A DNA stretch of 64,000 nt from an uncultured Lachnospiraceae bacterium (GCA_947164865.1 CAMUYA010000016.1:1603-65602), one strand, 5' to 3'. Positions 54,792 through 56,378 are shown, numbered from the stretch's first letter. Translations and numbers: made by a program. Notes: generated by a model from the sequence alone, not told the origin.

Positions 54792-56378
54792 TTAATTCAG
54801 TGTTGGTGCCGGCTGCGGCATATGCAGTCTCCTTACCATATCGACAGCTTCATTCTGCAGATCATACCTGCCTACAGACGCGCATAACAGCCTCATACAA
54901 TACTCCACATCACTCTGGTCCATAAGATCGCCGCAAACGCGGTCCGCAATATCCTTGAGCAACTCAGGGTTCCCGTTTACCTGATCGGTAAGAAGCTGGG
55001 TGTACAGGGAGTCTACCAGATTCATCAGTTCTGTATAAGCGACCTCGTCACAGCCTGACATATCTACCACTCTTCCGCCGTATTTATCTCCTATCTCGTC
55101 ACAACGCTGACCGCCAAAGCTTGATGCAAACTCGCCGGTAGCCTTCTTGTCGTGAACATGGCCTGTCTGGTTCATCTTCATGTATGCATCACTTTCAAAG
55201 CCTATAAGCATACCTGCATGTTTGCTCTTTGTGCCTTCCTCAAAATGCATGAAAAGGTGACCGCAGCTTCCGTCATTCCGGAGCAGACGCGGCCTGCCTG
55301 TGGCATCGGGAATACCGTTGTTACCCATACCTCCGACAGCCACATTAAGTCCATACTGGCTCCTGGGAGAGAAAAACTTAACTTCTTTAGCCTCACCGTC
55401 AGAGCCCTTTTTCTTGCGGCTCATCGTGTGAGTAGCCCCCAGTCTTGGATCAAAACCGGCTTTTTTATTAAAACTCTGGAACATTGCTTCCTGTCTCTGT
55501 TCCGAGAATTGTTCCCCTCCGGCACCGGGGAGAGTGATCATGACTCTTGAGCAGTGAGCAAAAGCATTTGCAACAGCTCCATGCCAGTCTTCATTAACCG
55601 GAGGAGTCTTTTTCGAATCTTTTACTCTCATTCTGCCCAGATGACAAGTGAGCATTGTTTTAAAAATAAATACCTGCGACTTTAAATTCTGCTCTCTTTC
55701 CTCACGGGTATACCCGGGCGTGCTGCCGGGGACCTTTTTGGTGATTGTGGCTATCATGATCTCTTTATTCAGAAGCTCATCGATCTTTCTGTATTTAGCC
55801 ACAACTGCAGGCTCTACATCCGGTGAATTTATCACACATGAAATACCCATACGCAGAAGAGGGTTCATCATTTCGGAAATATAGTCCGCGGGATGGTTAT
55901 ATTTTAAGGATTGTATGAATTGCTCAGGAGTCTGATGCTCACTTATCGGATGATTTTGTGACATCCATTTTGTGGCCGCACGGTTTCTGAGAACGGAATC
56001 AAGATCCTGCATATGGGTGCAGTCACCCAGCGAAACCCGATTGAAAAGTTCCCTCTGCGTTATCTTTTCACCGCTGATCTCCACTTCCTTTGCCATTACA
56101 TCCTGCATATAAGGCGATTCAAGGTCCTTGGCTGTCACAAAAGAATTCCTTGCTTTTGCTTCTTTGTACTTTTTCTTTTCTGCCTTTTTCTCGTCCTTTG
56201 AAAGGCTCGAATAAGGTCGGTGCAGCTGTTCCGGTGCAGCAGGTTCATCGGCCTCATCAGCAAGGTCCGGGTACATCTCCCTCTGCAGCATGGGCGCCAC
56301 GTCATGCATTTCAAGGCTTCTGTACATCGTTGATTCAGATTGAAGCTTTTTGGTCTTTTGTGCCTGTGTTGTTGCCAT
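54792..56378 (-). CDS. Putative toxin/effector with an Ntox11-like domain
   Basis: RLGATH (aa 312-317), GHLFMH (aa 373-378), GFE (aa 393-395), GHVH (aa 406-409) and HCSRV match the motifs I recall for Ntox11; RBS AGGAGGTG; no signal peptide. Confidence 0.65.
   Translation of the reverse strand: MATTQAQKTKKLQSESTMYRSLEMHDVAPMLQREMYPDLADEADEPAAPEQLHRPYSSLSKDEKKAEKKKYKEAKARNSFVTAKDLESPYMQDVMAKEVEISGEKITQRELFNRVSLGDCTHMQDLDSVLRNRAATKWMSQNHPISEHQTPEQFIQSLKYNHPADYISEMMNPLLRMGISCVINSPDVEPAVVAKYRKIDELLNKEIMIATITKKVPGSTPGYTREEREQNLKSQVFIFKTMLTCHLGRMRVKDSKKTPPVNEDWHGAVANAFAHCSRVMITLPGAGGEQFSEQRQEAMFQSFNKKAGFDPRLGATHTMSRKKKGSDGEAKEVKFFSPRSQYGLNVAVGGMGNNGIPDATGRPRLLRNDGSCGHLFMHFEEGTKSKHAGMLIGFESDAYMKMNQTGHVHDKKATGEFASSFGGQRCDEIGDKYGGRVVDMSGCDEVAYTELMNLVDSLYTQLLTDQVNGNPELLKDIADRVCGDLMDQSDVEYCMRLLCASVGRYDLQNEAVDMVRRLHMPQPAPTLN

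Follow-up and report, generated by a model that had tools for sequence, protein, structure and literature searches.

A candidate eCIS payload of the Ntox11 family, encoded with a tandem-GNAT partner apart from the injection machine in an uncultured Lachnospiraceae bacterium

The stretch of DNA analysed here, hereafter the window, comprises 64,000 nucleotides of contig C16 (C16:1603-65602) in the genome of an uncultured Lachnospiraceae bacterium (2.94 Mb, 99.6% complete). It is ordinary chromosome, encoding PriA, a Mur ligase, fmt, def, a PASTA kinase, carB, EF-G and glycoside hydrolases, and within it lies the gene for an Ntox11-family protein, whose features and neighbours are collected in Table 1. 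Nearly all window ORFs of at least 150 aa were scanned; apart from the genes discussed below they were all housekeeping or unrelated, and no injection-system or T7SS gene was found among them. The ATG of the Ntox11 gene is preceded, 6 nt to its 5' side, by a strong Shine-Dalgarno site (AGGAGGTG), and the GNAT gene, separated from it by a spacer of 58 nt, has its own site (GAGGA) 7 nt upstream. On the other side, 67 nt separate the end of the STAS gene from the start of the Ntox11 gene. Operon structure is read from this spacing alone, because a promoter/terminator scan did not rise above chance.

Table 1 Features of the Ntox11 locus and of a second GNAT-containing site in the window
Feature	Position	Strand	Basis and remarks
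Ntox11-family protein, candidate eCIS cargo/toxin	54792..56378	-	528 aa, uninterrupted ORF; PF15521; AF2
Variable Lys/Glu-rich hydrophilic leader, aa 1 to ~95; candidate eCIS loading signal	56094..56378	-	Alignment occupancy; KD50
Conserved helical N-terminal part of the module, aa ~96-228, beyond the Pfam model	55695..56093	-	Alignment; AF2
Pfam Ntox11 core, aa 229-468	54975..55694	-	Pfam and homolog alignment
Tandem-GNAT partner, 284 aa	53879..54733	-	Pfam Acetyltransf_1; Foldseek; adjacency in relatives
STAS (anti-sigma-antagonist-type) protein, 99 aa	56446..56745	-	Pfam STAS, E 3.9e-16
Protein of no recognised family, 212 aa	56747..57385	-	Precedes the STAS gene; homologs travel with STAS and HATPase_c_2
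Second member of the tandem-GNAT family, 277 aa	20062..20895	-	Pfam GNAT; partner-family HMM full-length, E 6e-24
Signal-less protein, 3073 aa, candidate further cargo	10779..20000	-	Directly downstream of the second GNAT

An earlier reading made from the sequence alone had described the product as an Ntox11-like protein, and the profile search bears this out: PF15521 matches it with 155 bits (gathering cutoff 25, E 3.6e-45), the match covering model positions 1-282 of 294. Judged by this match, the 528-aa protein is a fresh member of a known, uncharacterised toxin family. Ntox11 is its sole Pfam family, so that neither an LXG, RHS, PT-TG, WXG or other trafficking domain nor a DUF4157/eCIS_core domain was found in the Pfam scan, and no NCBIfam model matches it. 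The claim that the protein lacks a signal peptide also stands, as its N-terminus is hydrophilic and contains no Sec-type signal or other hydrophobic signal segment.

The five motifs on which the family assignment had been based (HCSRV, RLGATH, SCGHLF, IGFES and TGHVH) are all in place and conserved across homologs, as H275-C-S-R278-V, R312-LGAT-H317, S-C-G-H374-LF, I-G393-F-E395-S and T-G406-H-V-H409. In an alignment of 193 diverse Ntox11 family members, the GxR motif is represented by C276-S-R278, with Cys replacing Gly and the Arg 99% conserved; RxxxoH is R312-L-G-A-T-H317 (R 99%, T 97%, H 99%), GxE is G393-F-E395 (100% and 99%) and GxxH is G406-H-V-H409 (99% and 99%), while the conserved His is H374 (96%) and an acidic residue is found at D439 (93%). 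Conservation in the core extends to H275, E332, K334, H407, K432 and R436. Seven residues (R278, R312, H317, H374, E395, H407 and H409) do not vary among 49 close relatives and are 90-100% conserved among the 193 family members.

Homologs align from about aa 100, with an occupancy of at least 0.82 from aa 97 onward (193 homologs), and R176, T211 and K240 are 88-94% conserved in the same set. The helices over aa ~96-228 are modelled with pLDDT >90. Going by this alignment, the conserved Ntox11 module is larger than the Pfam model and spans aa ~100-500. As such, the suggestion that the N-terminal ~230 aa are an unrelated charged region is right for aa 1 to ~95 but not for aa 100-228, because the latter are part of the conserved module.

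AlphaFold (AF2) models the whole chain as one unit (pLDDT 90.5, pTM 0.91), with helices and strands mixed over aa 225-345 and strands over aa 374-439. Sequence and profile searches of the PDB returned low-complexity noise only, and Foldseek searches of the model against the PDB and BFVD found no relative (best E 0.19, TM ~0.1). The biochemistry of the domain thus remains as blank as had been supposed, with neither a sequence nor a fold relative in the PDB. Fusion partners offer no functional clue either, since Pfam showed no second domain in seven larger proteins that carry Ntox11 (1097-1846 aa). A 2024 preprint likewise termed Ntox11 structurally uncharacterised, and proposes that the N-terminal domain of Legionella VpdC (Lpg1426) is a distant homolog (bioRxiv 10.1101/2024.05.09.593423). 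The conserved residues comprise a His/Glu/Asp set (H317, H374, E395, D397, H407, H409 and D439), an Arg/Lys set (R278, R312, K334, K432 and R436) and a Gly-rich loop (G349-G355), from which we infer that Ntox11 may be a metal- and/or phosphate-ligand-dependent enzyme.

Ahead of the module lies the variable leader, whose alignment occupancy falls to 0.44-0.67 (193 homologs). Published eCIS payload signals have a very hydrophilic first 35-50 aa without a Sec signal, a slightly positive, disordered stretch at aa 6-21 and an aromatic residue within the first 8 aa (PMC11297309). The hydropathy fits: the KD50 of the Ntox11 protein is -0.91, at the 4.9th percentile among 2084 ORFs of its own genome, and the median KD35 of the Ntox11 family is -0.92 against -0.07 for the background (p = 4e-62). 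The charge at aa 6-21 is +3 in the 528-aa protein, but does not discriminate, since the family mean equals the background (p = 0.52). No aromatic residue occurs in aa 1-8, and AF2 predicts a confident helix over aa 15-35 rather than a disordered leader. The leader thus appears to resemble published payload signals in part.

The sequence-only reading had also set the toxin apart for having no canonical delivery system nearby. This is correct for the window but not for the genome: the search for export systems that it had called for turned up a complete eCIS/PVC-type locus on contig C13, identified by Pfam structural markers, so that the statement misleads as a headline. The locus encodes a Pvc16_N cap, a DUF4280 (PAAR-like) protein, a 599-aa sheath, a gp19 tube protein, two CIS_tube proteins, a Phage_base_V spike, gp25, two Baseplate_J proteins and Tail_P2_I. 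The structural genes are followed by those for a STAS protein, an ABC ATPase, a SpoIIAB-like HATPase_c_2 protein and two AAA ATPases, as well as an MFS fusion, a small GNAT and a SpoIIE-HAMP phosphatase. Capsid, portal and terminase genes were not found among the ORFs scanned. Since the genome encodes an eCIS, it is no longer puzzling that the toxin has no delivery genes beside it. The link of Ntox11 to PVC-type export, which the sequence-only reading had mentioned, agrees with this as well as with the original survey, in which Firmicutes were already among the taxa listed (Zhang et al. 2012, PMC3482391). A search of the source genome with PF13699 gave no match, a result that is uninformative alone as its control was likewise silent, and tblastn of the genome with a relative's eCIS_core protein gave no match either. 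Three giant proteins encoded 5' of the C13 cap gene (1276, 1243 and 1420 aa) were considered as cargo and set aside for their hydrophobic, signal- or TM-like N-termini, and the 281-aa ORF heading this giant-protein region is not a GNAT.

The Ntox11 gene, on C16, lies neither in nor next to the eCIS operon of its own genome, but in some relatives it does. In a panel of 301 genomes, one per genus of the same bacterial family, Ntox11 was present in 7 and the Pvc16_N cap in 28, with both in 6, an overlap that is significant when genomes are treated as independent (Fisher p = 2.5e-6; 2.3e-5 after removal of the window's genome). One panel genome (G210) has Ntox11 with neither an eCIS nor the GNAT family. 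A genome of the same genus as the source (G151) is devoid of Ntox11, the cap gene and the GNAT family. The DNA of G151 is too diverged from that of the source genome for a comparison of synteny. In two genomes (G058 and G164) Ntox11 and Pvc16_N share a contig, at a distance of about 25 kb. Of 39 reference loci, five (L017, L020, L021, L026 and L031) have baseplate genes about 6 kb upstream of the Ntox11 gene and five (L018, L023, L025, L026 and L030) have eCIS_core-like genes within 10 kb of it. Overall, eCIS genes lie within 10 kb of the Ntox11 gene in at least 9 of the 39 related loci, and this is a lower bound because many of the contigs are short.

The next gene had been named as a tandem GNAT sitting where an immunity gene would be expected, and Pfam together with the fold search corroborates the tandem GNAT. 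Its AF2 model (pLDDT 91.6) contains two GNAT folds in one chain, and its Foldseek relatives are VipF, a clavulanate-pathway tandem GNAT, MshD, a clostridial glucosamine N-acetyltransferase and Eis (E 3e-11 to 1e-8), with 2wpw among the matches. In 35 of the 39 loci the Ntox11 gene has a GNAT homolog as its immediate neighbour (33 downstream, 2 upstream), and in one more the homolog lies within 2 kb. The GNAT is hence a conserved partner of the Ntox11 gene and not an incidental neighbour. The family is highly divergent, with only eight positions conserved at 85% or above, yet the acetyl-CoA loop R68-R69-K-G71-Y-G73 is conserved and its R68-R69-x-G71 part essentially invariant (R68 and R69 100%, G71 94%). 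The long GNATs of two loci (L009 and L010), considered as informative fusions, proved to be duplicated units instead.

This GNAT family is multi-copy, at 3-8 per genome, and the source genome holds about nine full-length paralogs, several of which adjoin large signal-less proteins with hydrophilic leaders. These include the 3073-aa protein of the window, which matches no Pfam family and whose leader is hydrophilic and rich in Lys and Glu (KD50 at the 11.5th percentile), a 1029-aa protein on C5, a 729-aa protein on C20, and proteins of 633, 687 and 640 aa on C11, where a STAS gene is also present. For leader hydropathy, every large protein paired with a GNAT ranks within the lowest 0.3-17%. A calpain-like protein of 863-943 aa is likewise flanked by members of the family in relatives. 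Of the 11 panel genomes that encode full-length members, 9 are eCIS-positive (p = 6.8e-9, with genomes again taken as independent); the two eCIS-negative genomes are 68% and 85% complete, and three panel genomes have the eCIS and the GNAT family without Ntox11. The N-terminus of the partner itself is ordinary (65th percentile for hydropathy), and so the GNAT is probably not loaded and stays in the producer cell. We read it as a producer-side, cargo-cognate acetyltransferase that may protect, mature or load its cargo. No paper linking GNATs with eCIS cargo was found in the literature searched, and the recurrent cargo and tandem-GNAT cassette, in scattered or orphan placement, is so far undescribed.

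The STAS protein encoded next to Ntox11, on its upstream side, is a paralog of the one at the end of the C13 eCIS operon (C13:23130-23426), with which it shares 38% identity. In relatives a STAS gene directly follows Tail_P2_I (L017, L020, L021, L026 and L031). The 212-aa protein has no match in Pfam, NCBIfam or PADLOC, and its homologs adjoin STAS and HATPase_c_2 genes in three loci (L007, L015 and L023). This suggests that the detached cassette may have retained a piece of the partner-switching control of the eCIS.

Membership of the Ntox11 family, the eCIS on C13, the co-occurrence and linkage with eCIS genes, the hydrophilic leader and the conserved GNAT partner together argue that the Ntox11 protein is a payload of the bacterium's own eCIS (PVC/Afp type), encoded in a cassette that has become detached from the C13 machine; we give this reading a probability of roughly 0.65. 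Under it, the Pvc15-like AAA ATPases would recognise the leader (aa 1 to ~95) and the protein would be loaded into the eCIS tube; once the particle is released and contracts, the protein would enter a target cell, which might be another bacterium or a eukaryote of the rumen. In that cell, H317, H374, E395, H407, H409, R278, R312, K334, K432, R436 and the G349-G355 loop would catalyse a reaction that is presumably metal- and/or phosphate-ligand-dependent. The GNAT, remaining in the producer, would act on or with its cognate cargo via acetyl-CoA, either to protect the cell itself or to mature and load the cargo. The neighbouring genes for STAS and the 212-aa protein, which are paralogous to the partner-switching set of the eCIS locus, probably couple the cassette and the machine in their expression. 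Counted against the payload reading are the position of the cassette on another contig than the eCIS and amid housekeeping genes, the failure to find DUF4157/eCIS_core in the genome (although the PF13699 control was uninformative), the AF2 helix at aa 15-35, the charge feature at background level, the one genome with Ntox11 that is without an eCIS, and the prospect that the eCIS itself acts inside the cell, as some Gram-positive contractile systems are reported to do.

A bolder extension, which we offer tentatively and consider doubtful, is that in one Lachnospiraceae eCIS lineage every cargo, irrespective of its toxin domain, has its own active, producer-retained tandem GNAT, and that acetyl-CoA-dependent modification of the cargo keeps the toxin inert or licenses its loading. 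Such modification might fall, for example, on the leader with its many Lys residues or on a catalytic Lys, for instance K334 or K432.

The main alternative to the payload reading is that Ntox11 and its acetyltransferase form a cytoplasmic, non-exported pair under partner-switching control, either with a stress or developmental role or as the effector of a contractile system that fires inside the cell and brings about regulated cell death; we think this unlikely. The host is a monoderm, in which release of particles requires lysis. A STAS gene and its associated 212-aa gene lie directly upstream of the pair, STAS, HATPase_c_2 and SpoIIE recur near it in relatives and also inside the eCIS locus, and the chromosomal setting is stable, being identical around the Ntox11 gene of a close relative (L007). 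However, the distribution of Ntox11 is sporadic (7/301 genomes, with the gene missing even from the same-genus genome), the gene occupies the payload region of relatives' eCIS loci, and the payload-like leader is common to other GNAT-paired proteins.

We regard as quite unlikely that the two genes are an eCIS-independent interbacterial toxin-immunity pair, in which Ntox11 would be freed by lysis or another route and the GNAT would be a dedicated immunity protein. The definition of Ntox11 came from polymorphic toxin systems (Zhang et al. 2012, PMC3482391), the window is without delivery genes, and the downstream GNAT is conserved, tightly spaced and fast-evolving in the manner of immunity genes. 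A dedicated immunity role is complicated, however, because the GNAT family also pairs with unrelated cargo types, namely the calpain-like protein, the 3073-aa giant and the proteins of 630-1029 aa. Furthermore, the GNAT retains a catalytic-type acetyl-CoA loop, unlike plug-type immunity proteins, the Ntox11 protein has neither a trafficking domain in Pfam nor a signal peptide, and the co-occurrence and physical linkage with the eCIS are strong. An anti-phage defence or toxin-antitoxin module, with Ntox11 as an abortive-infection toxin and the GNAT as antitoxin or co-toxin, appears very improbable. GNAT toxins do occur in type II TA systems, and a two-gene architecture with sporadic distribution would suit such a module, but PADLOC returned no match for the five proteins tested, the neighbourhood is no defence island, a size of 528 aa with a leader is atypical of TA toxins and the eCIS link has no parallel among TA systems.

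Ntox11 has been named yet biochemically blank since 2012, and the 528-aa member provides a tractable entry point, being compact, confidently modelled and equipped with defined conserved residues and a natural partner. The eCIS payloads of rumen and gut Clostridia are largely unknown; that the tandem-GNAT family tracks eCIS genomes and adjoins several unrelated large proteins without signals suggests a genomic rule for finding orphan eCIS cargo in these bacteria, and the pairing hints at a new form of cargo control. If true, the idea of one GNAT per cargo would mean that injected effectors undergo an enzyme-based step of immunity or maturation that has not been described before, and would give the first experimental handle on the structurally unique chemistry of Ntox11.

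In comparison with the Ntox11 family as first described (PF15521; PMC3482391), the protein shares a full-length HMM match, the RxxxoH, GxE and GxxH motifs with the conserved His, the layout of an alpha/beta part followed by a beta-rich one and, at the level of the genome, the link to PVC-type export. It differs in that GxR is here C-S-R, in that its conserved module is larger than the Pfam model, and in that a PVC-metallopeptidase/DUF4157 domain is neither fused to it nor found in the source genome. It also has a conserved GNAT partner, while neither an immunity nor a partner protein is given in the 2012 survey. The N-terminal domain of VpdC, the proposed distant homolog, is similarly without solved relatives and is described as a unique fold with a conserved charged groove of Arg, Glu and Tyr (bioRxiv 10.1101/2024.05.09.593423); it belongs, however, to a Dot/Icm substrate fused to a phospholipase and not to an eCIS cargo.

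Among known tandem GNATs, namely Legionella VipF, the mycothiol synthase MshD, the clavulanate-pathway enzyme and Eis (PDB 7wx7, 6wqc, 2c27, 2wpw, 6rft), the two-GNAT-domain fold and an R/Q-x-x-G-x-G/A acetyl-CoA loop in one domain are shared with the partner, whose loop is in the N-terminal domain. Identity is only 10-16%, however, TM scores are 0.4-0.55 with a differing domain arrangement, and the partner family is multi-copy and typically found beside large signal-less proteins. Unlike VipF, the partner has no payload-type leader and is probably not injected.

A further parallel is with the payloads of the Photorhabdus virulence cassette and Serratia Afp, and with eCIS-associated toxins (PMC10097599, PMC11297309). 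Like these, the Ntox11 protein is signal-less with a very hydrophilic leader, Pvc15-like AAA ATPases are present in the eCIS locus, and in relatives the Ntox11 gene follows shortly after the baseplate genes, where payloads are usually encoded. In contrast to them, the candidate payload is encoded on another contig than the machine, the host is a monoderm that lives strictly anaerobically in the rumen or gut, the C13 locus includes a partner-switching module (STAS, SpoIIAB-like kinase and SpoIIE phosphatase), and the candidate cargoes are paired with a tandem GNAT gene.

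The window encodes a second protein of the tandem-GNAT family, and immediately downstream of its gene, on the same strand, lies an ORF of 3073 aa. No domain was detected in this ORF by a Pfam search, it has no signal peptide, and its N-terminal leader is hydrophilic and rich in Lys/Glu. The GNAT and this ORF probably make up one more orphan cargo cassette, belonging to the same system as the Ntox11 cassette. Elsewhere in the source genome, a cluster on contig C11 has the gene order 633-aa protein, GNAT, GNAT, 687-aa protein, 640-aa protein, GNAT and STAS, and the N-termini of its three large proteins are extremely hydrophilic (0.8-3.8th percentile of the genome's proteins); the arrangement resembles a series of cargo cassettes.

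Among relatives, one GNAT gene is flanked by two Ntox11 copies (~62% and ~54% identity to the window's protein) at loci L001/L008, while at L032 the Ntox11-GNAT pair is present twice, back to back. These tandem paralogs indicate that the cassette has diversified locally. The Ntox11 family also includes multi-copy or giant architectures, namely the representative proteins P0121, P0141 and P0199, which are 5.4-5.9 thousand aa long with 2-5 Ntox11-like stretches close to the N-terminus.

Locations of the features discussed (G000, source genome; C, its contigs; L, compared loci)
Feature	Location	Strand	Context
Second tandem-GNAT gene	window 20062-20895	-	pair with 3073-aa ORF spans 10779-20895
212-aa protein	window 56747-57385	-	
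Cassette-like array	G000 C11:70371-79181		outside the window
649-aa protein	L050:8883-10832 (G000 C13)		downstream of second AAA ATPase
eCIS operon end	G000 C13:10909-23426 (L005/L050)		
1276-, 1243- and 1420-aa proteins	L006:2659-14573 = G000 C13:42658-54572		successive; just upstream of eCIS cap gene

Near the eCIS genes, the 649-aa protein gave a weak PI3_PI4_kinase match under the cutoff (E 0.0011), and it is a possible lipid-kinase-like cargo. The three successive proteins beside the cap gene had zero Pfam matches. Their N-termini are hydrophobic and signal- or TM-like, which makes a place at the surface or in the envelope more likely for them than a role as cargo.

Pfam, NCBIfam and PADLOC searches returned no match for the 212-aa protein. 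In several genomes (L007, L015, L023) its gene is kept beside those for STAS and HATPase_c_2, so it may be a partner-switching component that has not been described before. A full partner-switching set, comprising STAS, a HATPase_c_2 kinase and a SpoIIE-HAMP phosphatase, closes the eCIS operon, which further encodes an ABC ATPase, two AAA ATPases, a 987-aa MFS fusion and a 198-aa GNAT. In four relatives' loci (L017, L020, L021 and L032), the baseplate genes are followed by the same STAS, HATPase_c_2, MFS order as on C13.
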